A stretch of 64,000 nt of DNA, from positions 69,467 to 133,466 of the forward strand of contig JADJYS010000014.1 in NCBI GenBank assembly GCA_016719645.1. Reading direction: 5' to 3'. A model generated the notes under the pieces. That model searched no databases, was not told where the DNA came from, and worked only from the letters and a program-made list of their open reading frames with translations. Shown here one piece after another: positions 124 to 39,989 of the stretch; within the stretch, counting starts at the first letter, position 1, and each line of letters opens with the position of its first letter. This DNA comes from a bacterium. GTDB taxonomy: Bacteria; Krumholzibacteriota; Krumholzibacteriia; LZORAL124-64-63. A program made the position numbers and the translations under genes.

Positions 124-1095
124 ATGAACACCAAGGTCACCACGATCGTTGCGGCAGCGGCTCTGCTCTGCCTGCTCTCCGGGGTCAGCCAAGCGCTCAC
201 GCCCTACACCCAGACCTTCGAAGGCATGCCCCTGCCGGCGGCCGGGCGACTGATCGGCGACGGCTGGCTGGTCTACGGCAACGCCTTCAACCCGTCGATG
301 GTCTGGATGTACGGTTACGGCCCCTACCCCGCTCCCAACGACGGCGCCGCGTTCTGCGCGGTCGCGACCGGCGAGGGCGGCGTCGATCAGGGCAGCAGGC
401 AGCTGTCGGTCTACGGCGACTACCAGAACCAGGCCCAGGGCGGCGGCAACTGGATCCAGGCGAACATCTTCAAGGAGCAGACGATCGTCGCCGGCGACGT
501 CGGCGACACCTGGGTCTTCGCGTTCCAGGCCAAGATGGGCAACCTCGGCGGCGGCTCGACGGCCCTGGCGTTCATCAAGACCATCGACCCCGCCAGCGGC
601 TACGCGATGACCAACTTCGTGACCGCCGACATGACCGCGATCCCCGCGACCTGGGGCGGCTACCAGGTCTCGCTCACGATCGACGCCGGTCTGGTCGGCC
701 AGCTGTTCCAGTTCGGTTTCATGAACCTCGTCACGCTGTTCGAGCCCTCGGGCATCTTCTACGACAACGTGGACTTCCACCTGGACGACTCCACCGCCGC
801 GCCCGCCGCGGCGCTGCCCGGCGTCAGGCTCGCGCAGAACCATCCGAATCCGTTCAACCCGTCCACGCGGATCGAGTTCGCACTGGACGCCGCCGGCCCG
901 GTCGAGGTCGCGGTGTACGACCTCGGCGGCCGCCGCATCGCCGTGCTGGCGGACGGCACGTTCGCCGCCGGCGCGCACAGCGCGGTCTGGGACGGGCGCG
1001 ACGGCGACGGCCGGGCCGCCCCGGCCGGGCAGTACCGCTGCGTCCTGAAGACGGCGGCCGGCGACGTGTCCCGCAGCATGACCCTGGTGAAGTAG
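124..1095 (+). CDS. Secreted protein of unknown function with C-terminal T9SS/FlgD-Ig-like sorting domain
   Basis: ATG at 124 after GAGAGG. N-terminal signal peptide (AAAALLCLLSGVSQA). C-terminus has NPFNPSTRIEF...VYDLGGRRIAVL...WDGRDGDGRAAPAGQYRC, the type-A Por-secretion CTD signature. Confidence 0.8.
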   Translation: MNTKVTTIVAAAALLCLLSGVSQALTPYTQTFEGMPLPAAGRLIGDGWLVYGNAFNPSMVWMYGYGPYPAPNDGAAFCAVATGEGGVDQGSRQLSVYGDYQNQAQGGGNWIQANIFKEQTIVAGDVGDTWVFAFQAKMGNLGGGSTALAFIKTIDPASGYAMTNFVTADMTAIPATWGGYQVSLTIDAGLVGQLFQFGFMNLVTLFEPSGIFYDNVDFHLDDSTAAPAAALPGVRLAQNHPNPFNPSTRIEFALDAAGPVEVAVYDLGGRRIAVLADGTFAAGAHSAVWDGRDGDGRAAPAGQYRCVLKTAAGDVSRSMTLVK

Positions 1096-1120: not shown

Positions 1121-1150
1121 GGAGGGGGACGGACGCCGCCGTCCCCCTCC
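1121..1150 (+). terminator. GC-rich hairpin (12-bp stem GGAGGGGGACGG / CCGTCCCCCTCC, 6-nt loop) downstream of the 124..1095 CDS
   Basis: Perfect inverted repeat read directly from the sequence. No U-tract, which is common in high-GC genomes. Confidence 0.4.
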
Positions 1151-1209
1151 CACCCTCCAGCGAAACGGGGCCTCCATGTTCACGCGACACACCGTCAGGC
1201 AGGCGAAAC

Positions 1210-4200
1210 ATGGAGGGTAAGCCGGCGCCCGCACGTCCCCTGACCCCGGCAGCGCTCCCGTTCTCGGCGCCCACGGGCGGCTTCGTCACGCTCGACGGGG
1301 AGCCGTTCTACCGCATCGCGGCCTACGACAGCCTCGAGCCCTTCCTGATGACCCTGGCCAACGACGCCGACCTGTGGCTGTTCATCTCCTCGCGCGGCGG
1401 CCTGACCGCGGGCCGGATCGACCCGGACGGGGCGCTGTTCCCCTACGTGACGGTCGACGAGCTGCACGACGCCCACCACCACACCGGCCCGCGCACGCTG
1501 ATCCGCCTGGCGTCCGCCGACGGGGCGACGACCCTGTGGGAACCGTTCGCCGACCGCGCCGGCGAGGCGCAGGTCGAGAGGAACCTCTACAAGAGCGCCG
1601 CCGGCACGCGCCTCGTCTTCGAGGAGATCGATCACGCGCTCGGCCTGGCGTTCCGGCACGAGTGGGCCGGCTGCGACGAGTTCGGGTGGGTGCGCACCGC
1701 CACGCTGGAGAACCGGTCCGGCGCGACCCGGCGCCTCGACCTGCTGGACGGCTTGCTCAACGTGCTGCCTCACGGGGCGCCGCTGAGCCTGTACCAGCAG
1801 ACGCCGAACCTGGTCGACGCCTACAAGAAGTCCGAAATCGATCCCGCCACGGGCCTGGGGGTGTTCTCGCTGACCGCCGGCATCACCGATCGGGCCGAGG
1901 CTCTGGAATCGCTGAAGGCCAACGTCGTCTGGTGCTGCGGGCTCGCGGGAAGCCGCCGCCACCTGTCGCGCCGGTCGCTCGACGACTTCCGCCGCGGCCG
2001 CGCCGCCGCCGCCGACACGACGCTCAACGGCGTCCGCGGCAACTACCTGGTCGGCGCGAGCCTGAAGCTGGGTCCGGGCGCCGCGGTGCGCTGGCGCCTG
2101 GTCTGCGACACCGGCCGCGACCACGTCGCGGTCGCGGCCCTGCGGCGACTGCTGCGCGAGGAACCGGACCTGGACGCCCGCGTCGCCGCGGCGCTGGACC
2201 GGGCCGGCGAGGGTCTGCGGCGCAACGTCGCCGCCGCCGACGGCCTGCAGGCCACCGGCCGCCCCGAGGCCTGGGCCCATCACTTCGCGAACGTCCTGTT
2301 CAACAACATGCGCGGCGGCGTCTTCTGGCGGAACGAGACGGCGCCCGCCGACGATTTCGCCGCCTTCGTGCACGCCCGCGACCGCGGGGTCGCCGCGCGC
2401 CGGCGCGGGCTGCTCGACGCCCTGCCCGAGTCGCCGTCGATCCGCGAGCTGCGCGAGGCGGCCGTCGCCTCCGGCGACTCCGACCTCGTGCGGTACGCCC
2501 TGGAGTACCTGCCCCTGCACTTCGGGCGCCGCCACGGCGACCCGAGCCGGCCCTGGAACACGTTTTCGATCCGCGCGCGGGGCCACGGCGGGGCCCGCTC
2601 GCTGGGCTACGAGGGCAACTGGCGGGACATCTTCCAGAACTGGGAGGCCCTCTGCGTCTCCTATCCCGGGTTCCTGCCGAACGTCGTCGCCAAGTTCGTC
2701 AACGCCTCGACGGTCGACGGCTTCAATCCCTACCGCGTCTCCCGCGACGGCGTGGACTGGGAGACCGTCAAGCCGTCGGATCCCTGGAGCAACATCGGCT
2801 ACTGGGGCGATCACCAGGTGGTCTACCTGCTGCGCCTGCTCGAGCTCTGGCACCGCCACGAGCCCGCCGCGTTCGGCGCGGCGCTCGGCGACCGGATCTA
2901 CACCTACGTCGAGGTGCCGTACCGCATCAAGCCCTACGCCGAGATCCTGAAGAACCCGAGCGACACGATCGAGTTCGACACGGAGCTCGCGGCGCGGATC
3001 GGGGCGCGCGTCGCCGCCATCGGCACCGACGGCAAGCTGCTGCACGGCGGGGACGGCGCGGTCCGCCGCGCGAACCTGTTCGAGAAGCTGCTGGTGCCCG
3101 CGTTGTCCAAGCTGTCGAACCTGGTTCCCGACGCCGGCATCTGGATGAACACGCAGCGCCCGGAGTGGAACGACGCCAACAACGCGCTGGCCGGCGGCGG
3201 CGTCTCGGTGGTCACGCTCTGCCATCTGAGACGCTACCTGGCATTCCTCGCCGAACGCTTCGCGTCGGCCGGCGAGGCCGAGCTGCCCGTCGCGGCCGAG
3301 ATCGCCGCCTGGTTCGACGGCGTCGCGCGGGTCCTGGAGGAGGAAGCGCTCCCGGCCGGCGCGGGCGCGCTCGACCCGCGCGAGCGCAAGCGGCTGCTGG
3401 ACCGTCTCGGCGGCGCCTTCGACGACTACCGCCGGGCGGCGTACGCGGGCGGGCTGAACGGCGACGTCGGCCTCGCGCCGGCGCGCGCCGCCCGCCTGTG
3501 CCGCACCGCCCTGGCCTGGACCGAACGCAGCCTCGCGGCCAACCGCCGCGACGACGGCCTGTACCACGGCTACAACCTGCTGCACTTCTCCCCCGACGCC
3601 TCCCGGGCCGAGGTGGACCGTCTGCCGGTGATGCTCGAGGGGCAGGTCGCCGCGCTCGATTCGGGCGCGCTGGACCCGGCCGCATCGCTCGCGGTGATCG
3701 AGCAGCTGTTCGCCAGCGACCTCTACCGCCCGGACCGCCGGAGCTTCCTGCTGTACCCGGAACGCGAGCTGCCGGGATTCCTGGCGCGCAACCTCGTGCC
3801 GGACGACCTCGCCGGGGCGGTGCCCCTGCTGCGGGAGTCGCTCGCCGCCGGCGACGACGCCCTGGTCGCCCGCGACGCCGACGGCGCCCTCCGCTTCGCC
3901 GCCGGCCTGCGCAACGAACGCGACCTCGAAGCGGCGCTCGACAAGCTGGCCGAGCGCCCCGGCCTGGCCGGGACCGTCGCCCGCGACCGCGAGGCCGTGC
4001 GCGAGCTTTACGAACGCGTGTTCCGCCACCGCTCCTACACCGGGCGCTCCGGCGTGATGTACGGTTACGAGGGGCTGGGCTGCATCTACTGGCACATGGT
4101 CGCGAAGCTGCTGCTGGCGACCCAGGCGGCCGCCCTGCGCGCCGAGAGCGAGGGCTCGCCGGCCGCGATCCGCGACGGCCTGGCCGCGGCCTACTTCCGC

Positions 4201-4692
4201 ATCCGCGCCGGCCTCGGCCCCGAGAAGAGCGTCGCGGAGTTCGGCGCCTTCCCGACCGATCCCTACTCGCACACCCCGGCCCACGGCGGCGCCAAGCAGC
4301 CGGGAATGACCGGCCAGGTGAAGGAGGAGATCCTGGCCAGGTTCGGCGAGCTGGGCGTGAGCGTGTCCGACGGCGCCGTGCGCTTCCGCCCGCACCTGCT
4401 GCGGGAAGACGAATTCCTCGCGCAGCCTTCCGCCTTCCGGTACTACGATGTGGAGGGTCGCGAACGGACCATCGCCCTGTCGGCCGGCCAGCTGGCGTTC
4501 ACCTACTGCCAGGTGCCGATCGTGTACACCCGGAGCGACGGACCGGCGCGTCTGCGCGTCACGTGCGCCGACGGCTCGTCGACCCGGGACGACGGCGACA
4601 GGTTGTCCCCGGCCACGAGCACCGAGCTGTTCGCCCGCAGCGGCCGGGTCGCACTGATCGAGGTCGGAGTCAGCCTGCCGCGCCCGGCCTGA
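1210..4692 (+). CDS. Large cytoplasmic glycoside-phosphorylase-like protein (GH94-like); possibly a beta-1,3-glucan phosphorylase (GH149/GH161-like)
   Basis: 1160-aa ORF with normal composition and no signal peptide. The motif PEWNDANNAL resembles the GH94 catalytic DWND region. Neighbouring genes are GH16 and GH17 glucanases. Confidence 0.5.
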   Translation: MEGKPAPARPLTPAALPFSAPTGGFVTLDGEPFYRIAAYDSLEPFLMTLANDADLWLFISSRGGLTAGRIDPDGALFPYVTVDELHDAHHHTGPRTLIRLASADGATTLWEPFADRAGEAQVERNLYKSAAGTRLVFEEIDHALGLAFRHEWAGCDEFGWVRTATLENRSGATRRLDLLDGLLNVLPHGAPLSLYQQTPNLVDAYKKSEIDPATGLGVFSLTAGITDRAEALESLKANVVWCCGLAGSRRHLSRRSLDDFRRGRAAAADTTLNGVRGNYLVGASLKLGPGAAVRWRLVCDTGRDHVAVAALRRLLREEPDLDARVAAALDRAGEGLRRNVAAADGLQATGRPEAWAHHFANVLFNNMRGGVFWRNETAPADDFAAFVHARDRGVAARRRGLLDALPESPSIRELREAAVASGDSDLVRYALEYLPLHFGRRHGDPSRPWNTFSIRARGHGGARSLGYEGNWRDIFQNWEALCVSYPGFLPNVVAKFVNASTVDGFNPYRVSRDGVDWETVKPSDPWSNIGYWGDHQVVYLLRLLELWHRHEPAAFGAALGDRIYTYVEVPYRIKPYAEILKNPSDTIEFDTELAARIGARVAAIGTDGKLLHGGDGAVRRANLFEKLLVPALSKLSNLVPDAGIWMNTQRPEWNDANNALAGGGVSVVTLCHLRRYLAFLAERFASAGEAELPVAAEIAAWFDGVARVLEEEALPAGAGALDPRERKRLLDRLGGAFDDYRRAAYAGGLNGDVGLAPARAARLCRTALAWTERSLAANRRDDGLYHGYNLLHFSPDASRAEVDRLPVMLEGQVAALDSGALDPAASLAVIEQLFASDLYRPDRRSFLLYPERELPGFLARNLVPDDLAGAVPLLRESLAAGDDALVARDADGALRFAAGLRNERDLEAALDKLAERPGLAGTVARDREAVRELYERVFRHRSYTGRSGVMYGYEGLGCIYWHMVAKLLLATQAAALRAESEGSPAAIRDGLAAAYFRIRAGLGPEKSVAEFGAFPTDPYSHTPAHGGAKQPGMTGQVKEEILARFGELGVSVSDGAVRFRPHLLREDEFLAQPSAFRYYDVEGRERTIALSAGQLAFTYCQVPIVYTRSDGPARLRVTCADGSSTRDDGDRLSPATSTELFARSGRVALIEVGVSLPRPA

Positions 4693-4748
4693 CACCCGCG
4701 GCGTCAACCAGCGGCCCGGCGCGGCCGGACCCGCACCAGGAGCCGACC

Positions 4749-6371
4749 ATGCAGCCCAAGCCGCCGCTGCCGGCGCCCGCCCGCGCAGCGCTCCTCGCCC
4801 TCGTCATGGTGGCGGCTCTCGCCGGCGCCGCGCCCGCCCAGTGCATCCTGGCCAATCCCAGCTTCGAGGTCGCCGGCTCCGGCGGCGTCGTCTTCGGCGG
4901 CTGGAACCAGTTCGGTTCGGTCGGGCTCTCGACGATCGCCAGCCACGGCCACAAGGCCGCGCGCGTCAGGGGGCCCAACGCGGGCGGCTGGGACGTGTCC
5001 GGCTTCTGGCAGGCGCACACCTGCACCGCGGGCGAGTCGTTCGAAGTGACCGGCAACGTGCTGGTCCCGTCGCTCAGGCCCCTGACCGGAGCGTGCCTCG
5101 CCCTGGTCAACGTGGAATGGCGCGACGGCGCCGGCAACCTGATCGACTACGACGCCAACACCGTCGCCACCGCGAGCAGCGCGACCGACACGTACCTCCC
5201 CTTCGCGCTGACGGCCGGGCCGGCGCCGGCGGGCTCCGCCACGGCCCGCCTGCTGCTCGGCGTGCTGCAGAGCCCGTCCGATCCCTCGCCCGACGTCTAC
5301 TACGACCAGGTCACGTTCTATGCCACCGCCGCGCCGACGATCGACGACGTGCAGTGGAACGACTTCCCCGGAGGCAGGACCCTGGATTTCGCCGGCCGCC
5401 TCTGGCGCGTCAAGGGCCCGGGCTACTACGGCCCCGGCGGCAACCTCTTCAGCGACTCCCAGGCGAGCGTCTGGGTCGATGAGGCCGGGGCCCTGCACCT
5501 GACGGCGCAGAGGGTCGGCAGCAACTGGTACTGCACCGAGGTCGCCGTCGAAGATGCGCTCGGCTACGGCGACTACGTGGTGACGACGGCCGGCCGGCTC
5601 GACCTGCTCGATCCCCAGGTCGTGCTCGGCCTGTACCTGTGGGAGTACGGCCCCTGCTGGGACGAGGGCTACCTCTGGTGGAACGCGTTCAACGAGATCG
5701 ACATCGAGTACAGCCGCTGGGGCGACCCCTCGCAGGGGATCGGGCAGTTCGTGGCCCAGCCCTGGGACTGGAGCGGCAACCTGACCCGCTTCGACGCCGC
5801 GTTCGCCGCCGGCGAGATCGTCAGCCACGCGATGCGCTGGCTGCCCGACCGCGTCGAATTCCGCGTCTGGCGCGGCGGTCCGCAGGACGAGTCGGCCGGG
5901 ACCCTGATCCGGGCCTGGACCTACACCGGCCCGCACATCCCGCGTCCCGAGCAGCCGCGGACACACCTGAACATCTGGAAGCTCTCGGGCACGCCGGCGA
6001 CGAACCAGGAGGTCGTGATCAGCGACTTCAGGTTCGTGCCGGAAGGCGCGACCGCCGTCCCCGACGACCGCCGCCCCGGCATGCCCATGGTCGCGGCAGG
6101 CCGCCTGCTGCCCGCCGCGCCGAACCCCTTCAACCCCTCCACGGCGCTGCGCTTCGAACTCGACCGCGCCGGTCGGGTCGAACTCGAGATCTTCGACCTG
6201 GCGGGCCGGCGCGTGCGGACGCTGGCCCGCGGCGATTTCCCGGCCGGGGCCCACGCCGTCGAGTGGGACGGATGCGACGGCGAGGGATCGGCGCTGCCGT
6301 CGGGCGCCTACCTGGTCCGGCTGCGGGGCGACGACTTCATCGAAACCGGCGGCCTGTCCCTCGTCAGGTGA
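4749..6371 (+). CDS. Secreted GH16-like beta-glucanase (laminarinase-like) with N-terminal CBM-like region and C-terminal T9SS-like domain
   Basis: ATG at 4749 in the frame of track ORF 1374..6371. Signal peptide (ALLALVMVAALAGAAPA). NEIDIEY matches the GH16 ExDxxE catalytic motif. C-terminus NPFNPSTALRFELDRAGRVELEIFDLAGRRVRTL...WDGCDGEG. Confidence 0.75.
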   Translation: MQPKPPLPAPARAALLALVMVAALAGAAPAQCILANPSFEVAGSGGVVFGGWNQFGSVGLSTIASHGHKAARVRGPNAGGWDVSGFWQAHTCTAGESFEVTGNVLVPSLRPLTGACLALVNVEWRDGAGNLIDYDANTVATASSATDTYLPFALTAGPAPAGSATARLLLGVLQSPSDPSPDVYYDQVTFYATAAPTIDDVQWNDFPGGRTLDFAGRLWRVKGPGYYGPGGNLFSDSQASVWVDEAGALHLTAQRVGSNWYCTEVAVEDALGYGDYVVTTAGRLDLLDPQVVLGLYLWEYGPCWDEGYLWWNAFNEIDIEYSRWGDPSQGIGQFVAQPWDWSGNLTRFDAAFAAGEIVSHAMRWLPDRVEFRVWRGGPQDESAGTLIRAWTYTGPHIPRPEQPRTHLNIWKLSGTPATNQEVVISDFRFVPEGATAVPDDRRPGMPMVAAGRLLPAAPNPFNPSTALRFELDRAGRVELEIFDLAGRRVRTLARGDFPAGAHAVEWDGCDGEGSALPSGAYLVRLRGDDFIETGGLSLVR

Positions 6372-6396
6372 ACGCGCCCCGGCGGGTACGCAGAAA

Positions 6397-6429
6397 GAAG
6401 GGGGTCCGGCGTCGCCGGACCCCCTCTTC
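6397..6429. terminator. Bidirectional hairpin between convergent genes (GAAGGGGGTCCGGCG-t-CGCCGGACCCCCTCTTC)
   Basis: Near-perfect inverted repeat with an A-run on the 5' side and TTCATC on the 3' side. Lies between the stop codons of 4749..6371(+) and 6463..7155(-). Confidence 0.5.
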
Positions 6430-6462
6430 ATCGCGCGCAGCGGCGCGACGCGGGCGAGATGT

Positions 6463-7155
6463 CTAGTAGAGAGCCTTGATCGTGCCCCAGCTCATGGTCT
6501 CCGAGGAGACCGTGCCTTCCGGACCGACGACCAGCGTGCCGAAGGGAGCCAGGTCGGTGACCCAGACGTTGACGCCGGTGGTCTGGAAGCCCCACTGCAC
6601 GTGGCGGGCCGGATCGTTGATGGCGACCTGCGACAGGCTGAACGGCCCGGGCGAGGACAGGACCACCGTGGTCTGCACGAACGACGAGAAGTCGGGGGCG
6701 AAGTCCTTGATGAAGGCCAGGACCGTGTGGGCGCTGGTCAGGGTGTTGGACAGGACCTCGCCGGAGAACGTCACGGTCTGGCCCGCGAGGGCGCCATCGA
6801 CCTGGGCGTAGAGGTTGGCTTCCATGATCTTGTTGCCCGGCGCGCCCGGACCGCCGCAGTTCGGCGGCGAGACCCCGCCGACGCACTGGTACCAGTACTC
6901 GTTCGGATCGCCGATCGTGTTCGGCCCCAGGGTCAGGATGGAGCCGCTGTAGACGGCCGTCAGATCGCCGATTCCCCAGCCGCTGCCCCACAGGAAGTTG
7001 CCGCCCAGATCGAACACGTTCATGTACCCGAAGGTGATCGCCGCCGGATCGACCGTGACGTCGGTCTGCGCCTGGGCGACGGCCGCGCCGAACGACACGA
7101 GCGCGAGCACGATCAACAGTGCGCGAAGAGCAACGTTACCATTTGTCCTCATCAT
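6463..7155 (-). CDS. Secreted protein of unknown function ending in the WGxIKALY tail
   Basis: Signal peptide (ALRALLIVLALVSFGAAVAQAQ). Extreme C-terminus is ETMSWGTIKALY*. Confidence 0.75.
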   Translation of the reverse strand: MMRTNGNVALRALLIVLALVSFGAAVAQAQTDVTVDPAAITFGYMNVFDLGGNFLWGSGWGIGDLTAVYSGSILTLGPNTIGDPNEYWYQCVGGVSPPNCGGPGAPGNKIMEANLYAQVDGALAGQTVTFSGEVLSNTLTSAHTVLAFIKDFAPDFSSFVQTTVVLSSPGPFSLSQVAINDPARHVQWGFQTTGVNVWVTDLAPFGTLVVGPEGTVSSETMSWGTIKALY

Positions 7156-7643
7156 GACGACTCCTTGATTTGAAGTGCGCGGTCCCTGGGGTTTTCGCGG
7201 AATACCCGGATACCTGGACGCCGCCCCGTGCGGTCGTCGACGATCTTGCCATCACAGGATCGAGGCATCTCCACTGGGAAGATCATAAACTATGTTCGGT
7301 GACCGAATCAAGTAGATTTTCAGGATATTAAAAAAGTGATGAATTGTTAAATTTTAGCAGGCATCATAAATAATGAGATGAATCGTGAAAGATTTTCCCG
7401 GGCTCCCAATCCACGAACTTGTTGGCCGGCATGTCGGTTTCTGGTACTTTGTTCGGGTCTCGTACAAAGCTTCCGCGATGTCTTCGGTCCCAGCCTGCAG
7501 AGGTCGGCCCGGGGGGTGAATCCGGCGATGATGGACCTGCTCGGCGCTTTGCCGACACCGGACCACAACGAAAGCTGGCGCCCGATGGACGCTCATCCCC
7601 TCGTCGGCCCCGTCGCGGTCGCGCTCCCCGCGGAGGTGTTATC

Positions 7644-8678
7644 ATGTGGTTCCAGGTGATCCCCGCGGCCACCGCGGCGCTCGTCCTCGCCGGACCGGCG
7701 GCCGGCGGCATGGCGGCGCCGCTCGACACCACCCAGCAACGGGAGGCTGCCGTGGACGTACGTCCTTTCCAGCTCAGCGACGAGGGCGCCTGGATCGGCG
7801 AGGCGATCTGTTACGGACCGCACCGCGACGGCCAGCGACCGGGCGGGCCCGGTCCCGCGGCCGACCAGATCCTCGAAGACCTGCGTCTGATGCGGCCGCG
7901 GTGGCGCCTGCTGCGGACCTACGGCGCGGCGGAGACCGCCGAGACGATCCTCGCGACGATCCGCGCCGATTCCCTGGGCATGAAGGTCTTGCTGGGCGCG
8001 TGGATCGAGCCCGAACGGGGAGACGGCGACCAGGGCGCTCCGGACACCGAGAAGACCGACGCCAACGAGCGGGAATGCGCGGCCGCGATCCGGCTGGCCA
8101 ACGCCTACCCCGACGTGGTCATCGCCGTGTGCGTGGGCAACGAGACCCAGGTGTCGTGGTCGGGGAACCGCTGCTCCCCGGCGACGCTGATCGCCAGGAT
8201 CCGCCAGGTGCGCGCGGCCGTGACGGTCCCGGTCAGCACCGCCGACGATTTCGCCTACTGGCGCGAGCCCGCCAGCCGCGAGGTGGCCCGCGAGCTCGAC
8301 TTCATCACCCTGCACGCGCATCCGCTGTGGAACGGCCGCTCCCTGGACGAGGGCCTGCCGTGGCTCGACGCCCGCCTGGCCGAGGTGCGCGACGCGCACC
8401 CGGGCGCGACGCTGGCGCTGGGCGAGGTCGGCTGGGCGACCGACCGCGGGACCGAGGGGAATCAGGGGCGGCTGATCGCGGGCCGCACCGACGAGGCGAG
8501 CCAGACCGAATTCTACCGGCGCTACCGCGCCTGGGTCGCGGACGCGCGCCTGGCTTCGTTCTGGTTCGAGGCCTTCGACGAGAACTGGAAGGGCAGCGAC
8601 GACCCGCACGAGGTCGAGAAGCACTGGGGGCTGTTCCGCGCCGACCGCTCCCCCAAGCCGGCGCTGGCCGTCGAGTGA
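7644..8678 (+). CDS. Glycoside hydrolase family 17 protein (glucan endo-1,3-beta-glucosidase-like)
   Basis: GGAGG 7 nt upstream of ATG 7644. Signal-like N-terminus. Motifs VCVGNETQ (acid/base), GEVGWATD (nucleophile), and FEAFDENWKG...HWGLF at the C-terminus. Confidence 0.85.
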   Translation: MWFQVIPAATAALVLAGPAAGGMAAPLDTTQQREAAVDVRPFQLSDEGAWIGEAICYGPHRDGQRPGGPGPAADQILEDLRLMRPRWRLLRTYGAAETAETILATIRADSLGMKVLLGAWIEPERGDGDQGAPDTEKTDANERECAAAIRLANAYPDVVIAVCVGNETQVSWSGNRCSPATLIARIRQVRAAVTVPVSTADDFAYWREPASREVARELDFITLHAHPLWNGRSLDEGLPWLDARLAEVRDAHPGATLALGEVGWATDRGTEGNQGRLIAGRTDEASQTEFYRRYRAWVADARLASFWFEAFDENWKGSDDPHEVEKHWGLFRADRSPKPALAVE

Positions 8679-8722: not shown

Positions 8723-11038
8723 CTAGCCGGGGAGCGCGCCGAGCACCTTCTCCGGCGTGACCGGCAGCTCCCGCACCCGCGCCCCCACCGCCGCCGCCAC
8801 CGCGTTGGCGATCGCCGCCGGCGGCGTGTCGATGCCGATCTCCCCGACGCTCTTGGCCCCGTACGGCCCGCTCGGCTCGTGGCTCGCCACGAGCTCCGCC
8901 CTGATCGACGGGATGTCCTCGCGCCCCGGGATCTTGTAGCTCATCAGGTCGCGCGTCCGCAGGTGGCCCTGCGGCCCGTACACGACCTCCTCCCACAGCG
9001 CCATGCCGATGCCCTGCGCCAGCCCGCCCTCGACCTGCACCAGCGCCAGGTTCGGGTTGATGGCCTGGCCGCAGTCCACCACCGCCACGTAGTCCACGAG
9101 CGTGACCTCGCCGGTGGCCGCATCCACCTCGACCTCGGCGAAGGCGGCCATGTACGGCGGCGGCGACTTCTCGCAGAGGTGGCTGCCGGTGGTCATCAGC
9201 TGCTTCTGGTGCTCGTTGTAGAGCAGCTTCGCCGACAGGTCCCGCAGCGTGATCGCGCCGTCCGGCCCGCGCACCTCGCTCCCGTCGAACGCCGCCCGCG
9301 CCGGCTCGCACCCCAGCGACCGCGCCCCCTCGACCAGGATCTCGGCGCGCATCTTCAGCGCCGCCTCGCGCACCGCGTGTCCCGAGACGTAGGTCGTGCT
9401 CGAGGCGTAGGCGCCGGTGTCGAAGGGCGTGCGGTCGGTGTCCGAGGCGTAGACGATGATGTCGCCGGTCGGCACGCCGAGGGTCTCGGCCGCGATCTGC
9501 GCCAGGATCGTGTCGCTGCCGGTGCCGAGGTCCGTCGCCCCGATCAGCAGGTTGAACGAGCCGAAGTCGTTGAGCTTGAGCGTCGCGGCCGCCATGTCGA
9601 TGGTCGGGATGCCCGAGCCCTGCATCGCCAGGGCCATGCCCAGGCCGCGGAACACGCCGGGCGCCACCTCGCGCCGCGGGCCCTTGGCGTCCCAGCCGAT
9701 CAGCTCCCTGCCGCGGCGGATGCACTCGGGCAGCTTGCAGCTCTCGACGATCATCTCCACGCCCTCGGTGCCCTCGCCCATGATGGCGAAGATGGGCGAG
9801 GTCTCCCCCTCGGCGATCATGTTCTTCTCTCTCAGGACGATCGGGTCGAGCCCCAGCTCGCCCGCCAGCTCGTCCAGCGCCGACTCCAGGGCGAAGTTGC
9901 CCTGGATCGCCCCGTAGCCGCGGTAGGCGCCGCCCGGCACGCGGTTGGTGTAGACCGTGCGGCCGCCGAAGCGCACCGCCTCGACCTTGTTGTACAGGGG
10001 CAGCGTCTTGGCGCCGGCCACCATGAACACCGTCAGGGCGTGCTCGCCGTAGGCGCCGGTGTCGGACAGCACCTCCAGGTCGATGGCGCGCAGCGTGCCG
10101 TCGCGGTCGGCGCCCAGGGTCACGTCCAGGCGCATCGGGTGGCGCGTGTTGGTGGCCTCGAAGACCTCGCGCCGCGTGTAGACCATCTTGGCGGGCCGGC
10201 CCGTGCGCAGCGTCGCCAGCGCGCAGTACAGCTCGCCGTGGAGCATCTGCTTGCCGCCGAAGCCGCCGCCGATGCGCGGCTTCACGACGCGGATCTCCTT
10301 CACCTCGCGCTCCAGGGCGCGGGCCATGATGCGCCGCACGTGCCACGGCGTCTGCGTCGAGCTCATGACGTTCAGCCGCCCGTGCACGTCCAGCCAGGTG
10401 CAGGCGCAGTGGGGCTCCAGCGCCACGTGCTGCTGGGCCTGCGTGTAGTAGCGCCGGCGCAGCACGACCTCGGACCCCGCGACGACCGCGTCCACGTCCC
10501 CCACGTGCATGCTGTAGGCGCTGGCGACGTTGCGCCGCGGCTCGAAGCCGATCGGGAAGTTCTCGTGGATCTCCGGCTCGGGGTGCAGCACGACGGGGTT
10601 GTCCAGCGCGGCCTCGAAGTCCAGCACCGCCGGCAGCACCTCGTACTCCACGCGCACCGCGCGCGCCGCCTCGCGGGCCTGCTCCTCGGTCTCGGCCGCG
10701 ACGATGGCGGCCTCGTCGCCCACGTGGCGCACGTACTCGTCCAGGATGAAGCGGTCGCGGGGCGAGGGCTCGGGGTGCCCCTGGCCGGCGCGCGTCACCG
10801 CCACGCGCGGCACGTCCCTCCAGGTGAAGGCCGCCAGCACGCCGGGCATCGCCAGCGCCGCGGCCGTGTCGACCGACAGGATGCGGGCGTGGGCGTGCGG
10901 GCTGCGCACCGCCACCACGCACAGCGATTCGCGCGGCGCCAGGTCGTCGGTGTAGGCGGGCGTGCCGCGCACCAGGCCCAGGGCGTCGATCTTGGGCAGG
11001 GACCTGCCGACTTCCCGCAGTCCGTCGTCTCGCTTCAT
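8723..11038 (-). CDS. Xanthine dehydrogenase family molybdopterin-binding large subunit (CoxL-like aldehyde oxidoreductase/hydroxylase)
   Basis: Starts MKRDDGLREVGRSLPKIDALGLVRGTPAYTDD. 771 aa. VPGGAYRGYGAIQG rather than the CODH AYXCSFR motif. ATGA overlap with the upstream FeS subunit. Confidence 0.9.
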   Translation of the reverse strand: MKRDDGLREVGRSLPKIDALGLVRGTPAYTDDLAPRESLCVVAVRSPHAHARILSVDTAAALAMPGVLAAFTWRDVPRVAVTRAGQGHPEPSPRDRFILDEYVRHVGDEAAIVAAETEEQAREAARAVRVEYEVLPAVLDFEAALDNPVVLHPEPEIHENFPIGFEPRRNVASAYSMHVGDVDAVVAGSEVVLRRRYYTQAQQHVALEPHCACTWLDVHGRLNVMSSTQTPWHVRRIMARALEREVKEIRVVKPRIGGGFGGKQMLHGELYCALATLRTGRPAKMVYTRREVFEATNTRHPMRLDVTLGADRDGTLRAIDLEVLSDTGAYGEHALTVFMVAGAKTLPLYNKVEAVRFGGRTVYTNRVPGGAYRGYGAIQGNFALESALDELAGELGLDPIVLREKNMIAEGETSPIFAIMGEGTEGVEMIVESCKLPECIRRGRELIGWDAKGPRREVAPGVFRGLGMALAMQGSGIPTIDMAAATLKLNDFGSFNLLIGATDLGTGSDTILAQIAAETLGVPTGDIIVYASDTDRTPFDTGAYASSTTYVSGHAVREAALKMRAEILVEGARSLGCEPARAAFDGSEVRGPDGAITLRDLSAKLLYNEHQKQLMTTGSHLCEKSPPPYMAAFAEVEVDAATGEVTLVDYVAVVDCGQAINPNLALVQVEGGLAQGIGMALWEEVVYGPQGHLRTRDLMSYKIPGREDIPSIRAELVASHEPSGPYGAKSVGEIGIDTPPAAIANAVAAAVGARVRELPVTPEKVLGALPG

Positions 11039-11487
11039 CGCGCCTCCTGCAGGTAGCGGCGGATCGCGCGGGTCTGGCTGACGTAGCCGCCGCAGCGGCA
11101 GAGGTTGCCGGCCAGGTAGTGGTTGATCGCCTCGTCGTCCGGGTCGTCCAGCTCCCGGCTCATCGCCACGACCGCGACCACCAGCCCGGGCGCGCAGAAG
11201 CCGCACTGGTCGGCCCCCTCGGCCGCCAGGCAGGCGCCCAGATGCGCCGCCGCCTCGGGCAGCCCCTCGACCGTGGTCACCTCGCGGCCGTCGGCGCGCG
11301 GCGCGGGCACCGCGCACGAGGGCACCGGCGCGCCGTCCAGCAGCACCGTGCAGGTGCCGCACGAGGCGGTGTCGCAGCCGCGCTTCACGCTCAGCACGCC
11401 GTGGCGCCGCAGCGCGTCCAGCAGCGCCTCGCCGGGCTCGACGTCCCAGTCCGCGCGCCGTCCGTTCAGGACCAGGGAGATGTTCAT
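11035..11487 (-). CDS. (2Fe-2S)-binding small subunit of XDH-family hydroxylase (CoxS-like)
   Basis: 150 aa. CGTCTV and CGFC...CRCGGY cysteine motifs. Overlapping start/stop with both flanking genes. Confidence 0.9.
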   Translation of the reverse strand: MNISLVLNGRRADWDVEPGEALLDALRRHGVLSVKRGCDTASCGTCTVLLDGAPVPSCAVPAPRADGREVTTVEGLPEAAAHLGACLAAEGADQCGFCAPGLVVAVVAMSRELDDPDDEAINHYLAGNLCRCGGYVSQTRAIRRYLQEAR

Positions 11488-34757: not shown

Positions 34758-36278
34758 TTACCTCGCCAGGACCATCTTGCAGGCGGACCGCTCCGTGCCC
34801 GTCTTCACCTCGCAGAAGTAGACGCCGCTCGGCAGGGCGCGGCCTGCATCGTCACGGCCATCCCACCGCAACCTGATCACGCCGGCGGGACGGGACGCGT
34901 CGCTCAGCAGCACGCGCCGCAGCTTGCCGCCGGCATCGAAGACCCGCGCCGAAACCGGGGTGTCGGACGCCAGCGCGAATTCGATCTCGGTGGCGGGATT
35001 GAACGGGTTGGGGTTGGTCTTCACCGTGAGGCGCGCCGGGGGAACCGCCGCCGGCGCGCTGCCCGTGGGGTCGACGACGGGATCGAAGGCGTAGACCGCG
35101 CCCGCGTTGAGCGCGGTGTCGCTGTCCTTGCCGGCGCCGACCAGGACGCATCCGCCGTCGATGCCGACCGCGATGCCGAAATCGTCGTTCTGATTGCCGC
35201 CCGTGGCGGCCAGCCTCAGCAGCTCGGCGCCCGTCGCGACGTTGAAGACGTAGGACAACCCCGTCCGCGGCGTGCCGTAGCCCTGCTGGGTGGCGCCGAT
35301 CACGGCCAGATCGCCCGCGAGCGCGACGGAGCTGCCGAACCAGTCGGCGTAGTCCGCGTCCGCGGGGGTCAGCCTGTGCAGTTCCGCGCCGGTGGCGACG
35401 TCGAAGACGTAGGCCGCGCCGGCGTCTTCGTCCCCGCCGCCCCAGTAGGCGCCGACCAGCAGGGTGCGGCCGCAGATCGCCACCGCATTGCCGAAACGGT
35501 CGTAGGCGCCCCGGTCGCTGGCGGTCAGCCGCCAGAGCTCGACGCCGGTCCGCGGATCGAAGACGTAGACCGCGCCGCAGTCCGTCCTGCCGGGGGCGTC
35601 CCACATGGGAGCGCCGATCACCGCGAACGAGTCCGATACCGCCACCGCGTACCCGAACTGGTTCTGGCGGCCGAAGTCCGCGGCGACCAGCTTCCGCACC
35701 TGCACGCCGGTGTCCGGATCGAACAGGTACGCCGCGCCGCTGTCGTAGATCGAGACGCTGGCGTCGCAGTAGCGGGCGCCCACCAGGACGAACGAGTCCG
35801 AGACGGCCACGGCGCAGCCGAACTGGTCGTTCGCGGCGGCGTCGGCGGCCGTGAGCTTCCAGCGCTGGATCCCGTCGTCGGCCCCGAAGAGGTAGGCCGC
35901 GCCCGCATCGACGGCGGAGTGGTCGTCCCGCAGCGCGCCGATCACGGCACGCAGCCCGCGGAGCCCCACCGCGCAGCCGAAGTAATCGCCGCCGGCCGCG
36001 TCCGCGGCCCTCAGCTTGCGAGCCTGGACGTAACCGTCCAGGTCGAAGACGTAGGCGCAGCCGGAGTCGCCGCCGTCGTCGTCGTTCGCCTGGGCGCCGA
36101 TCAGGGCGAGTTCGCCCGACACGGCAAGGCTGATGCCGAAGCGGTCTCCGAGCGCCGCGTCGGCGGCCTGGATCCTGGTTTCGGTCGGCGTCGCCGACGC
36201 CGTGACGGCGCAGGCCAGACAGGCGAGGATGGTCGACGTCAAAAATCCGATGGGTGACTTCGCATCATCGTTCGACAT
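34758..36278 (-). CDS. Secreted FG-GAP-like repeat protein with C-terminal T9SS-like domain
   Basis: Repeated DxFGxAVAxxGxxxLIGA...YVFD units. C-terminus NPFNPATEIEFALASDTPVSARVFDAGGKLRRVL. Confidence 0.75.
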   Translation of the reverse strand: MSNDDAKSPIGFLTSTILACLACAVTASATPTETRIQAADAALGDRFGISLAVSGELALIGAQANDDDGGDSGCAYVFDLDGYVQARKLRAADAAGGDYFGCAVGLRGLRAVIGALRDDHSAVDAGAAYLFGADDGIQRWKLTAADAAANDQFGCAVAVSDSFVLVGARYCDASVSIYDSGAAYLFDPDTGVQVRKLVAADFGRQNQFGYAVAVSDSFAVIGAPMWDAPGRTDCGAVYVFDPRTGVELWRLTASDRGAYDRFGNAVAICGRTLLVGAYWGGGDEDAGAAYVFDVATGAELHRLTPADADYADWFGSSVALAGDLAVIGATQQGYGTPRTGLSYVFNVATGAELLRLAATGGNQNDDFGIAVGIDGGCVLVGAGKDSDTALNAGAVYAFDPVVDPTGSAPAAVPPARLTVKTNPNPFNPATEIEFALASDTPVSARVFDAGGKLRRVLLSDASRPAGVIRLRWDGRDDAGRALPSGVYFCEVKTGTERSACKMVLAR

Positions 36279-36464: not shown

Positions 36465-39400
36465 TCACCTGACGAGCATCATGTTGCGCTGCTGCGACTT
36501 CCCGTCCGCCTGCAGCCGGTACACGTACGCCCCGCTGGCGGCGTTCCCGCCCCGGTCGTCGCGCCCGTCCCAGACCACGGAGTGCGCGCCGGCCTCCCGG
36601 CTCCCCTCCACCAGGCTCCGCACCTGCCGCCCGCGCACGTCGTAGATGCGCAGGCTCACCGGACCGGCCTGCGGCAGCGAGAAGCGGATGACGGTGGACG
36701 GGTTGAACGGGTTGGGCGCGTTCTGCGCCAGCGTCGCGCCGCGGTCCGGCGTGCCGTCGTCCGCGCCGGTCGGGCTGCCGACCTGGATCGACAGGTTGTC
36801 CACGACCCAGCCCCAGCCGTTGACGGCGCCGTCGGCGTAGAACCGCCAGCGCAGCAGGATCGTGTCGCGCACGGCGAAGGCGTCGTGCAGGTCGAAGACG
36901 TGCGGCCGCAGCAGCGAGGAGCTGCCGGGCGTGCCGCTGTTCCAGGCGGTGACCCAGGCGGCGTCGCGCCGGCTGTCGTAGCCGTCGGCGATCGGCACCC
37001 AGGTGACGCCGTCCTTGCTGCCCTCCAGGATCACGTAGTCCCAGAAATCGCTGTCGCCGTAGACGCTGCCCGCCTCGCCCGGCTCGACCAGCACGACCTC
37101 GTCGAAGGAGACGTAGGCGTTCGACTGGGCGACGACGATCGGCACCGCGAGCATGGCCGTGTAGGCGGCGTTGTCGGGGTAGTCGTGCGGGAAGTGCAGG
37201 GCGCCGCCGCTGAAGCCGGCGTAGGCGCCGATGGTGAACCCGTCGCCGACGAAGTCGCCGGACGTGCTGAAGCTGTTCGTGTAGGCGGAGAGCGGCGCGG
37301 CGTACACGAACACCTCGAGCTCGCGCGTCACCGAGTCGTAGGCGACGCCGCCGCGGAAGGCGCGGGCGAACACGAGGCGCTGGCCGGCGCTCAGCACGGG
37401 CAGCTGCACCAGGGCGTCCTGCTGGAAGCCGCTGGCCGGCAGGGTGGCGCGCCGGACGCCGTCGACGAAGACCTGGGTGGAGTCGTAGGCGGACCGCAGG
37501 TTCAAATCGACGCTCAGCAGGCCGTCGGGGCCCTGGTAGAGGGCGTCGATGAGCGGCTTGAAGGTCTTGCCCGCGACCAGCGAGGGGAACTTCGCGCTCC
37601 AGATGCCGCGGCCGTGGCTGCCGATCACGACCTCGTCCTCGACCTCGGTCATCGACCAGATCGCCACGCTGGGCAGGCCGTTGTCGGCGAGCTCCCAGCT
37701 GGCGCCGCCGTCCAGCGACTCGACCAGGCCGATCTCGGTGCCGGCCCACAGGTGGTCGGGGTCGTCGGAGAACACCTGCAGGTCGTACACCGCCACGTCG
37801 GGGAAGCCGTTGGTGCTGGGGCTGCCGCCCGCGAAGCCCGTGATGTCGTTCCAGGTCTGTCCCAGGTCGTCCGTCCGGAGGATCTTGGGCCGGCCCGCGA
37901 AGCTGAACAGGACGTAGGCGACCGCGGGGTCGGCCGGGTGGGTGGCCAGGCCCGAGATGCCGCCCATGGTCGCGCCCGTGTAGTTCGGCACCACGCCGAA
38001 GGTGAGGCCGCCGTCGGTGGAGACGTGGATGCGCCCGCTGCCGTCCATGCGGGCGCCCGCCCAGACGATGTCGGGATCGGCGCGCGAGATCTTCACGGCG
38101 TGGAAGCTGCTGATCGAGCTCCAGGTCGCCGACGACACCGGGGTGAGCGACCAGCTGCCGCCGAAGTCCGTCGAGCGCCAGACGCCGCTGGCGCCGACGG
38201 CGAGCAGCAGGTCGGGCGCCTGGTTGGTCTTGGCGATCTTGGTGATGAAGGGGGCCAGGCCGGCGCCCGTGTCGCCCAGGCCGCCGGTGGCGCCGTTCCA
38301 GCTCTGGCCGCCGTCCAGCGAGCGCAGGAATCCGTTGTACTGGTAGCCGCCGATCATCTTCAGCGGGTCGTCGAAGTGCCACGAGGTCTCGTAGCCGTCG
38401 CCGCCGATGGCGAAGGTCCAGGGGGCGAGCCGGTCCGGGTCGGGTCCCGAGAACCAGGTGCCGTTGTCCTGCATGCCGCCGAAGTAGGCGCTGGCGCCGG
38501 GGCGCTTGTCGACGCCGTAGAACTGGGTGGTGGTCATGCCGTCGATGGGGGCGCTCCAGTTGGCGGCCTGGCTCGCGGCGACGCCGACGCCGCCGTCGTT
38601 GGTGTTCAGCAGGCGCCAGGCGCCGCCGCCGGTCGGCACCACCGCCAGGCCGTGGTGGTCCACGTGGACCGGCCCGACGCTCAGCTGGCTCGTGGTGCGG
38701 CTGGTGCCCGAGAGCGTGATCTGCCACAGGCGCACGCCGCCGACGTAGACGATGTTCACGTCGGTGGGGTGGCAGACGATGGTGTTGTCGTACCAGCCCT
38801 GCGCGCCCAGCCAGTTGGGCTCCGAGCCGCTCTCGAAGGTCTCGGACCAGGTCGCGCCGGCGTTGGTCGAGATCCACAGCTCGGAGTGGCTGGCGCCCTC
38901 GGCGGCGGCGTAGAGGCGGCTCGTGTTGACCGGCGAGACGGCCAGCTCGAAGCGGCCGCTCAGGTCGGCGATGCCGGTGTTGACGTAGGCCCAGCTGTTG
39001 CCGGCGTTGGTCGACTTCAGGATGCCGCCCTCGTCGACGGTCGCGTACAGCACGTTGAAGTTGCCGGGCGTGGCCACGATCTGCTGGATCTTCTTGACGC
39101 GGCCGAAGGTGCCGATGTCGGTGATCGCGTGCACCTCGGCCCAGTTCGCCCCGCCGTCGGTCGACTTGAAGATGCTCGAGCGCTGCAGCACCGAATCCTT
39201 GTAGCGCCCGACGGTCGTCACGGCCAGCACGACGTTGGCGTTCGCGGGGTCGACCACGATCCGGGCCACGTTGTTGAAGGCCGGGTCGTCGACGGTCGCC
39301 GGCAGGTGCGCCCAGGTCTGGCCGCGGTCGGTCGACTTCAGGATGCCGTTGCCGTTGATGGTGTCGACGTTGAAGAAGCTCTCGCCGGTGCCGGCGTACA

Positions 39401-39989
39401 GGACGTCGTGGTTGCTCGCGGCCATGGCCAGCGCCTGGACCGACAGCACCGGGAAGTCCGACGTCAGGTCGCTCCAGGTGGCGCCGCCGTCGGCGGTCTT
39501 CCAGACGCCGCCGCCCGCCGTCCCGATGTACCAGGTCAGGGCGGCCGGGTCGTCGGGATCGACCACGATCGCGCGGGCGCGGCCGGCGACGTTGCCGGGG
39601 CCGCGGTTCTCCCAGGCCAGCGTCGCGGCGGGCGAGCGCTTCGCCGCGCGCGCCGTGGCCAGCTCGCGCACCAGGTAGCCGGCCTCGTACTCGGGCTCCT
39701 TGCGGTCGGCGGGGATGCGCATCTCGTTCATCAGCCGCGCGAACTCCTCGGGCGCCTCGAAGGCCGGCAGGCCCGCGAGCCGGCGCGCGATGCGCTCGAT
39801 CTTGTGCCCGGCCTTGAAGCGGTCGGACGAGCCGGGCGCGGCGTGGTCGCGACGCAGTTCCAGCTTCGCGAGCTCGCGCGCGAAGGGATCGTCCTGCTCG
39901 CGGATGCCCGAGCCGGCCAGGAAGGACGCGGTGCCGATCGCGAGCACGCCCGCGACGGTCAACAGGGCAGGGATCCGGGAGAAACGCAT
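36465..39989 (-). CDS. Secreted BNR/Asp-box repeat (sortilin/VPS10-like) protein with C-terminal T9SS-like domain
   Basis: Signal peptide MRFSRIPALLTVAGVLAIG. Multiple S-x-D-G-G-x-T-W repeats. C-terminus NPFNPSTVIRFSLPQAGPVSLRIYDVRGRQVRSL. Start set by the ORF-track frame (may be off by 1). Confidence 0.8.
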   Translation of the reverse strand: MRFSRIPALLTVAGVLAIGTASFLAGSGIREQDDPFARELAKLELRRDHAAPGSSDRFKAGHKIERIARRLAGLPAFEAPEEFARLMNEMRIPADRKEPEYEAGYLVRELATARAAKRSPAATLAWENRGPGNVAGRARAIVVDPDDPAALTWYIGTAGGGVWKTADGGATWSDLTSDFPVLSVQALAMAASNHDVLYAGTGESFFNVDTINGNGILKSTDRGQTWAHLPATVDDPAFNNVARIVVDPANANVVLAVTTVGRYKDSVLQRSSIFKSTDGGANWAEVHAITDIGTFGRVKKIQQIVATPGNFNVLYATVDEGGILKSTNAGNSWAYVNTGIADLSGRFELAVSPVNTSRLYAAAEGASHSELWISTNAGATWSETFESGSEPNWLGAQGWYDNTIVCHPTDVNIVYVGGVRLWQITLSGTSRTTSQLSVGPVHVDHHGLAVVPTGGGAWRLLNTNDGGVGVAASQAANWSAPIDGMTTTQFYGVDKRPGASAYFGGMQDNGTWFSGPDPDRLAPWTFAIGGDGYETSWHFDDPLKMIGGYQYNGFLRSLDGGQSWNGATGGLGDTGAGLAPFITKIAKTNQAPDLLLAVGASGVWRSTDFGGSWSLTPVSSATWSSISSFHAVKISRADPDIVWAGARMDGSGRIHVSTDGGLTFGVVPNYTGATMGGISGLATHPADPAVAYVLFSFAGRPKILRTDDLGQTWNDITGFAGGSPSTNGFPDVAVYDLQVFSDDPDHLWAGTEIGLVESLDGGASWELADNGLPSVAIWSMTEVEDEVVIGSHGRGIWSAKFPSLVAGKTFKPLIDALYQGPDGLLSVDLNLRSAYDSTQVFVDGVRRATLPASGFQQDALVQLPVLSAGQRLVFARAFRGGVAYDSVTRELEVFVYAAPLSAYTNSFSTSGDFVGDGFTIGAYAGFSGGALHFPHDYPDNAAYTAMLAVPIVVAQSNAYVSFDEVVLVEPGEAGSVYGDSDFWDYVILEGSKDGVTWVPIADGYDSRRDAAWVTAWNSGTPGSSSLLRPHVFDLHDAFAVRDTILLRWRFYADGAVNGWGWVVDNLSIQVGSPTGADDGTPDRGATLAQNAPNPFNPSTVIRFSLPQAGPVSLRIYDVRGRQVRSLVEGSREAGAHSVVWDGRDDRGGNAASGAYVYRLQADGKSQQRNMMLVR

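Follow-up and report, generated by a model that had tools for sequence, protein, structure and literature searches.

We found that the window, a stretch of 64,000 nucleotides on contig JADJYS010000014.1 (assembly GCA_016719645.1) of an uncultured, high-GC bacterium of the Krumholzibacteriota, opens with what is, at a probability of about 0.82, the right-hand part of a beta-1,3-glucan utilisation locus, in which exported glucanases would act together with cytoplasmic phosphorolysis by an enzyme of glycoside hydrolase (GH) family 149. Five genes belong to this part (table 1), encoding p323, the GH149 phosphorylase, the modular protein p540 with a GH16-like domain, p230, and a GH17 glucanase. A preliminary description of the same DNA had read three of them as secreted GH16 and GH17 glucanases beside a cytoplasmic GH94-clan beta-1,3-glucan phosphorylase. 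That core is supported by family identities, catalytic residues, export signals and gene order; the three open reading frames (ORFs) are real coding frames lying exactly where it placed them, and every motif that it quoted is in place. Its three-part layout was too narrow, as the genes of p323 and p230 had been missed and the locus continues past the left edge of the window. Of the laminarin-type substrate, the beta-1,3-glucan part stands; laminarin itself is one possibility, nothing here distinguishing the algal polymer from beta-1,3-glucans of fungal or other origin.

The GH149 Phosphorylase

The 1160-residue protein matched the NCBIfam equivalog model NF058639 (GH149_beta_1_3, "GH149 family 1,3-beta-D-glucan phosphorylase") with 1404.3 bits, the cutoff being 1150, and residues 22-1154 covered profile positions 6-1133 of 1134. 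Pfam had no model for it. The crystallised bacterial GH149 enzyme Pro_7066, a beta-1,3-oligoglucan phosphorylase (PDB 6HQ6/6HQ8), aligned with it at E=4.7e-298 (994.8 bits) in one unbroken alignment (residues 22-1154 against 40-1169 of 6HQ6_A), which takes in both of the GH149-specific domains flanking the catalytic domain (described in PMC6771811). The protein had been assigned by size to GH149 or GH161; GH149 stood, and GH161 chains matched weakly (E about 1e-10).

The active site of Pro_7066 comprises W651-N652-D653, of which D653 is catalytic, R470-D471 for sugar-1-phosphate recognition, E951, and the phosphate-site residue H959 (PMC6771811). With the 19-residue offset of the PDB chain corrected, the equivalent residues in the window protein are W653-N654-D655 (nt 3166..3174), R472-D473 (nt 2623..2628), E954 (nt 4069..4071) and H962 (nt 4093..4095), all in locally identical sequence. 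The first three sit in RPEWNDANNAL, identical in 6HQ6; its PEWNDANNAL part (residues 651-660) had been pointed out as the GH94-type catalytic region, and D655 is the catalytic Asp. R472-D473 lie in the segment EGNWRDIFQNWE, and E954 and H962 in YGYEGLGCIYWHMV; both segments align to the matching Pro_7066 residues. The reading as a phosphorylase stands because the equivalog match exceeds the curated cutoff and the catalytic D655 is present. As had been described, there was no signal peptide or hydrophobic N-terminus, nor any transmembrane-like segment (maximum 19-mer hydropathy 1.25), so that a cytoplasmic location is a reasonable inference.

Membership in GH149 (clan GH-Q) is secure as judged from the sequence, and the protein would phosphorolyse beta-1,3-gluco-oligosaccharides; GH149 activity has been demonstrated on beta-1,3 linkages only (PMC5827456). 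It shares with Pro_7066 the full-length architecture, the WND, RD, Glu and His residues, the lack of a signal peptide and the GH16/GH17-type glucanase neighbours. The two differ in their source, which is metagenomic for Pro_7066 and a high-GC Krumholzibacteriota-like host for the window enzyme, and in the residues of a surface site considered below.

The Exported GH17 Glucanase

Pfam PF00332 matched only the C-terminal part of the 344-residue GH17 protein (29.3 bits, gathering cutoff 28.2). Over residues 70-344 the protein aligned with two solved structures, the endo-laminarinase FbGH17A of Formosa sp. Hel1_33_131 (6FCG, E=1.3e-27), which was the best structural match, and the fungal transferase RmBgt17A (4WTP, E=7e-19). 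The acid/base E167 (nt 8142..8144) ends the motif VGNE (residues 164-167), aligned to VGSE of RmBgt17A, and the nucleophile E261 (nt 8424..8426) lies in the GEVGW of GEVGWAT (residues 260-266), aligned to ISETGW of 4WTP; 4WTP has Glu at this position, and the 4WTR chain, which differs from it in nothing else, has Ala. The protein has a hydrophobic N-terminus, and export signals are clear in its homologues from relatives, one of which shows a lipobox-like LLGC. On these grounds the earlier assignment of a secreted GH17 enzyme holds.

The segment after LLGAWI, corresponding to the beta3-alpha3 loop, is gap-free against FbGH17A and 9+3 = 12 residues longer than in RmBgt17A. A long loop at this place goes with hydrolytic bacterial laminarinases rather than transglycosylases (PMC13188888). 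Loop length is a correlate and no proof, and it does no more than suggest a hydrolase. FbGH17A and the window GH17 have in common both catalytic motifs and a similarly long loop, the window protein being the shorter (344 vs 430 residues).

Loop length also bears on a reading in which the locus serves synthesis or remodelling, with GH149 running in reverse to build beta-1,3-oligosaccharides from glucose-1-phosphate and GH17 serving as a glucanosyltransferase, much as in the pathways of cyclic or storage beta-glucans. The GH149 reaction can run either way, and the founding eukaryotic enzyme of the family is that of Euglena gracilis, the organism in which activity of a beta-1,3-glucan phosphorylase was reported for the first time (PMC5827456); transglycosylases are reported among bacterial GH17s (PMC11005184), and the window GH17 aligns also with the transferase RmBgt17A. 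We nevertheless regard this reading as very improbable, as the compartments differ (GH149 predicted cytoplasmic, GH17 and p540 exported), the block contains neither a glycosyltransferase nor an exporter, relatives tie it to a GH1 beta-glucosidase and sugar importers, and GH17 has the long loop of the hydrolytic laminarinases.

The GH16-Like Domain of p540

The preliminary description called p540 a secreted GH16 glucanase. This was the weakest part of its claim because it was based on a five-residue motif; export and a GH16-like fold, motif and profile-profile homology were found, and every sequence model left the protein unrecognised as GH16. Neither PF00722, PF26113 nor PF03935 matched p540 at E<=1 in Pfam, and NCBIfam returned no GH16; the sole above-cutoff Pfam match and all NCBIfam matches were confined to the C-terminal FlgD_ig region. 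No GH16 was retrieved by phmmer with p540 and its family profile against all PDB sequences, and a local hidden Markov model (HMM) of 45 classical GH16s, taken from GH149 loci, matched 0 of 149 p540-family representatives. More than 800 homologues of p540 are annotated merely as FlgD_ig proteins or hypotheticals, and when the profile of its domain was used in an exhaustive HMMER search, 3,593 clusters (50% identity) were retrieved, with the p540-type domain set in many different architectures. Among 57 diverse family members, only two had a weak PF00722 match, whose position relative to the p540-type domain was not checked.

Structure and conservation pointed to GH16. The AlphaFold model of p540 has a mean predicted local distance difference test (pLDDT) score of 79, with 10-residue blocks of the central domain mostly at 80-98 and a weak loop at residues 302-314, and it places the motif EIDIE (E316-I-D318-I-E320) on a beta-strand (residues 316-321). 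The best Foldseek matches of this model were GH16 enzymes, with target-normalised template modelling (TM) scores of 0.60-0.70 among the best, although identity to the GH16 lichenases and laminarinases of clan GH-B (3I4I, 1GBG, 8XPH, 4BOW) was just 12-20%. E316, D318 and E320 do not vary among 48 aligned close homologues, nor does the ExDxE motif among the 57 diverse members, with about 30-40% identity across the close and distant sets. In profile-profile comparison by hhalign, a 145-sequence family profile (Neff, a measure of alignment diversity, 4.3) matched the 45 classical GH16s with a probability of 90% (E=1.7e-6, 144 columns), while narrow p540 profiles reached only 10-19% against GH16 (19% against the same 45). 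In every alignment EIDIE fell on the catalytic strand (DEIDIE / GEIDImE) of classical GH16. The fold, the invariant motif and the broad-profile comparison support the view that the central domain of p540 is a divergent GH16-type domain, as modelled, and probably catalytic; p540 would most likely work like a GH16. Because the sequence models did not recognise it, we do not file it as a member of GH16.

Considering that the sequence models fail to recognise p540, that Rv0315-type pseudo-glucanases (4WZF, 5DXD) appear among its structural matches, and that the loop before the motif is poorly modelled, p540 might be a non-catalytic, lectin-like "pseudo-glucanase" like mycobacterial Rv0315, leaving depolymerisation to GH17 and a classical GH16 outside the window. 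We think this unlikely. The three acidic residues are invariant among close and distant members alike, the motif aligns with the GH16 catalytic strand, and its conservation across the 3,593 clusters is what selection on catalysis would be expected to give.

The motif lacks the bulge residue that is present in the GEIDIME of the laminarinase-type GH16s beside GH149. The lichenase of Bacillus subtilis has a like non-bulged motif, and we take the resemblance as a lead only. It fits a reading in which the locus, or at least p540, targets another beta-glucan, either mixed-linkage beta-1,3-1,4-glucan (lichenan or cereal) or fungal and yeast beta-1,3/1,6-glucan in soil or sludge, with GH149 mopping up beta-1,3 fragments. 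The named relatives are metagenome-assembled genomes (MAGs) of phyla that are not exclusively marine (Krumholzibacteriota and Eisenbacteria), and Krumholzibacteriota MAGs are listed in a secretome study of activated sludge. Against it stand the beta-1,3 linkages to which the demonstrated GH149 activity is confined and the closeness of the window GH17 to a laminarinase, and we hold it to be possible but doubtful. A fungal beta-1,3-glucan as substrate would be a variant of the beta-1,3-glucan locus proposed here and no contradiction of it.

Gene Order and Linkage in Relatives

The closest relatives of the locus were L004 (GCA_030654305.1; p540 92% identical, the GH149 gene 96% identical in DNA), L085 (GCA_016706845.1; p323 99% identical) and L087 (a JGI contig; 82-88% identical). 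Gene order in relatives is classical GH16, GH2-like, GH1, p323, GH149, p540, p230 (- strand), in some a transporter of the major facilitator superfamily (MFS), GH17, and xanthine dehydrogenase genes; the five-gene block of the window is kept in order in L001-L004, L085 and L087. The GH1 gene (TIGR03356, 575 bits; no signal peptide) is the direct left-hand neighbour of p323 in every close relative. Since the left edge of the window falls in the intergenic region between GH1 and p323, three locus genes (GH16, GH2-like and GH1) should lie just beyond it.

On the right the locus ends with GH17, and the genes beyond are unrelated. Directly after GH17 comes a xanthine dehydrogenase/aldehyde oxidase-type molybdopterin subunit (8723..11362, - strand). 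In L004 the genes of the 2Fe-2S and FAD subunits come after that of this subunit, and parts of the set are seen in L087 (molybdopterin subunit) and L085 (2Fe-2S gene). The xanthine dehydrogenase genes are a conserved right boundary of the locus.

The GH2-like gene, two genes left of the window, encodes an exported protein of about 1040-1065 residues (L004 561..3758, L001 715..3885, L087 519..3713, all on the - strand). All that is recognised in it is an N-terminal GH2_C-type TIM barrel (PF02836, 27.1 bits, residues 92-311); the usual GH2 N-terminal domains gave no match to it, and about 750 residues are unannotated. It occurs full-length in many Flavobacteriia, is probably the "GH2" of the Muricauda laminarin polysaccharide utilisation loci (PULs), and appears to be functionally uncharacterised so far.

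Linkage was surveyed within 10 kb of GH149 in 84 loci from 80 species-level genomes. GH17 was found in 50 of them, classical GH16 in 49 and the GH2-like gene in 48, across many phyla. The association of GH149 with glucanase genes is beyond chance.

Table 1. Features of the right-hand part of the locus (window coordinates; GC3, G+C content at third codon positions).
Feature	Position	Strand	Basis or remarks
p323, exported, 323 residues: N-terminal domain of ~210 residues and C-terminal FlgD_ig-type domain	124..1095	+	GC3 0.96; hydrophobic N-terminus
Perfect 12-bp inverted repeat GGAGGGGGACGG / CCGTCCCCCTCC with 6-nt loop, between p323 and GH149	1121..1150		no T-run after it
GH149 beta-1,3-glucan (laminaridextrin) phosphorylase, 1160 residues, predicted cytoplasmic	1210..4692	+	GC3 0.95; NCBIfam NF058639, PDB 6HQ6/6HQ8
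p540, exported modular protein, 540 residues	4749..6371	+	GC3 0.95; hydrophobic N-terminus; signal peptide, beta-sandwich, GH16-like domain, FlgD_ig
p540, predicted beta-sandwich, ~residues 60-192, putatively CBM4/9/22-like	4926..5324	+	
p540, divergent GH16-like beta-jelly-roll, ~residues 196-435	5334..6053	+	motif E316-I-D318-I-E320 at nt 5694..5708
p540, FlgD_ig C-terminal domain, ~residues 458-540	6120..6368	+	
Perfect 13-bp hairpin between convergent p540 and p230	6399..6425		resembles a bidirectional terminator
p230, exported, 230 residues, beta-sandwich with CBM-like fold, ending in SWGTIKALY	6463..7155	-	fold
Divergent p230/GH17 spacer, 488 nt, lower GC	7156..7643		
GH17 beta-1,3-glucanase, 344 residues, exported, probably endo-acting	7644..8678	+	GC3 0.93; Pfam PF00332, PDB 6FCG/4WTP

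The Import Step and Points against the Reading

Several points weigh against the reading as a beta-1,3-glucan utilisation locus. No curated sequence model places p540 in GH16. The Pfam score of the GH17 protein is scarcely over its threshold, and since the family includes transglycosylases, the window GH17 would be a hydrolase by the criterion of loop length only. The surface oligosaccharide-binding site of Pro_7066 (E990/Y993/E994) is replaced by A993/F996/R997 in the window GH149; this site is poorly conserved among more distant bacterial GH149s (PMC6771811). Finally, the window has no gene for an importer, an outer-membrane transporter or a regulator serving the locus, and the MFS gene of L087, a relative 82-88% identical, is absent from it. 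In L087 this gene lies exactly between p230 and GH17 (L087 12349..14234); in the window, L004 and L085 the flanks are collinear and only 488 nt of spacer separate the two genes.

A comparison across phyla showed an MFS_2 (PF13347) transporter of 492 residues no farther than 10 kb from GH149 in 49 of 87 loci. It was also present in L006 and L007, and components of an Opp-type ATP-binding cassette (ABC) transporter were found in the locus of L008 and L009 (Eisenbacteria relatives). By tblastn, the spacer 7156..7643 contained no significant MFS remnant and the window no second copy; on the left, the contigs of the closest relatives stop too early to show more. SusC/SusD and TonB-dependent receptor Pfam families were absent among the scanned window proteins and the called genes of L001-L004 and L085-L087. 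The locus importer is a presence/absence polymorphism among close relatives. Because the locus copy of the MFS gene is missing, import would need a transporter encoded elsewhere, and for this organism the model leaves the step unexplained.

Based on the family assignments and on gene order in relatives, we propose the following scheme. The exported GH17 endo-glucanase and the modular, GH16-like p540 would depolymerise beta-1,3-glucan outside the cytoplasm, joined in relatives by the classical GH16 and the GH2-type TIM-barrel protein encoded just left of the window, while two exported, non-catalytic beta-sandwich proteins, p323 and p230, would probably bind glycan at the cell surface. Oligosaccharides would be imported by the locus-encoded MFS_2 or Opp-type ABC transporter in relatives, and here by the transporter presumed to be encoded elsewhere. 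In the cytoplasm, GH149 would take glucose units off the non-reducing end with inorganic phosphate, and the alpha-glucose-1-phosphate formed would enter glycolysis via phosphoglucomutase, saving one ATP per glucose; leftover short oligosaccharides would fall to a cytoplasmic GH1 beta-glucosidase, whose gene in relatives lies just beyond the left edge of the window. The substrates, the enzyme activities, the binding by p323 and p230 and the transport route in this scheme are what we infer.

Other Features of the Locus

The G+C content of the window is 72%, and for this reason long ORFs occur in many frames. Real coding frames were therefore picked among overlapping ORFs by GC3, and the five genes of table 1 had values of 0.91-0.96 each. 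Very long shadow ORFs are a common trap in DNA of 72% GC. Two of them, an antisense ORF of 1170 residues (1195..4707, - strand) and one of 1665 residues (1374..6371, + strand), were rejected as non-coding because their GC-per-codon-position patterns are typical of shadow frames at this composition.

The gene of p323 is directly upstream of GH149 in L001-L007, L015 and L085-L087, and its family has at least 702 homologues, none with any annotation other than the FlgD_ig domain (in p323 38.8 bits, residues 254-312). Many of the homologues P0393-P0420 are about 535 residues long and still cover 93-98% of the query, and so they seem to have additional or duplicated domains ahead of FlgD_ig; the copy number of the putative binding module may differ among genomes. 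Fold, export and conserved position together suggest that p323 and p230 are probably non-catalytic surface glycan-binding proteins. The position of p230 is occupied in several relatives by a paralogue of the p323 N-domain. Homology between that N-domain and p230 was considered and is unproven (BLASTP E=0.023; one bridging match of E=1.7e-6 in a tiny database; hhalign probability 8%).

As to regulation, the inverted repeat between p323 and GH149 may form a terminator or attenuator hairpin. A terminator scan gave nothing significant in the locus, and an Rfam scan gave no match there. Two sigma-70-like matches in the spacer between p230 and GH17, one at 7350-7322 and the other at 7311-7282, would serve p230, and GH17 is preceded by a GGAGG ribosome-binding site.

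C-Terminal Tags and Other Window Features

Four exported window proteins end in a tail of the form WGx[IVL]KxxY(R), namely SWGTIKALY, WGEVKALYR, WGQLKVLYR and WGSVKAIYSPPDR, each at the stop. One site is in p230 (6463..6489, - strand), and the others are the ORF ends 62400..62429, 59127..59156 and 63084..63125 (all - strand). Of 120 homologues in the p230 family, 84 match the tail (S/T)WGx(I/V)K(S/A)(L/M)YR strictly, most of the others having variants of it, and in two p230 homologues (P0189 and an L030 protein) a PEP-CTERM anchor takes its position. No Pfam or NCBIfam model covers the tail, which may be an undescribed C-terminal sorting signal.

A C-terminal FlgD_ig domain starting NPFNP(S/T)T was found in six exported window proteins, from 847, 6123 and 17805 on the + strand and from 54514, 36699 and 34995 on the - strand. 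The type IX secretion system (T9SS) type A sorting-domain model TIGR04183 scored 20.8 bits on p540, just under its cutoff of 23. The domain looks like a general secretion or anchoring tag of the lineage. For neither the tail nor the FlgD_ig domain did a literature search turn up anything relevant on a sorting role in these phyla. In L001, L006 and L009 paralogous domains are paired, one copy with FlgD_ig and the other with the short WGxIKxLY tail. Two of the FlgD_ig-tagged exported proteins lie apart from the locus: one of 1174 residues (36465..39989, - strand) with Sortilin-Vps10/BNR (Asp-box) repeats, and one of 506 residues (34758..36278, - strand) with seven FG-GAP repeats. The window's sole Rfam match, unrelated to the glucan locus, is an nhaA-I RNA, annotated as a cis-regulatory riboswitch, at 48644..48700 (- strand; 54.2 bits, gathering score 37).

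Comparison with Known Systems and Significance

Clusters combining GH149, GH16 and GH17 have already been published (PMC5827456, PMC13188888), so the locus is fairly ordinary in layout. Type II clusters of GH149 (Alteromonadales/proteobacterial) contain extracellular GH16, GH17, MFS (PF13347) and regulators (Kuhaudomlarp et al., PMC5827456), the Bacteroidetes PULs combine GH16/GH17 with beta-glucosidases (PMC5827456), and a Muricauda laminarin PUL comprises GH2, one or more GH16s, GH149, two GH17s, GH30_1 and MFS (PMC13188888). The window has GH149 beside GH16-type and GH17 genes in common with these, and its relatives add the GH2-type protein, a beta-glucosidase and MFS_2. In contrast to them, no SusC/SusD, TonB-dependent receptor or regulator was seen in the window, and the MFS gene is missing; relatives have GH1 in place of GH3/GH30; and GH17 is exported, whereas it is predicted to be cytoplasmic in the Type II clusters. 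Lineage-specific extras are p540, p323 and p230, together with the FlgD_ig domains or WGxIKxLY(R) tails on exported proteins.

The novelty is modest, consisting of a GH16-like family invisible to Pfam, two CBM-like families and the conserved C-terminal WGxIKxLY(R) tail. The GH16-like domain of p540, the p323 N-domain and p230 are candidates for new families of carbohydrate-active enzymes or carbohydrate-binding modules (CBMs), because they are missed by curated models yet tightly linked to beta-glucan loci. We also entertain, tentatively and at well below even odds, the stronger proposal that the p540 domain represents a large, uncharacterised secreted GH family related to GH16, perhaps outside the current GH16 of CAZy and with a new or lichenase-like specificity, which would stand alongside two unannotated CBM-like families carrying FlgD_ig or a possible sorting or anchoring tail.

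Although the understanding of the pathway is unchanged by these findings, they extend the published GH149-centred beta-1,3-glucan module to the uncultured candidate phylum Krumholzibacteriota and its relatives. GH149 is distributed far more widely than the Proteobacteria and Bacteroidetes in which it was first reported. Because GH149 relatives were found in at least 596 species-level genomes of many phyla, energy-saving phosphorolysis of beta-1,3-glucan may be common in the carbon turnover of soil, sludge and sediment.

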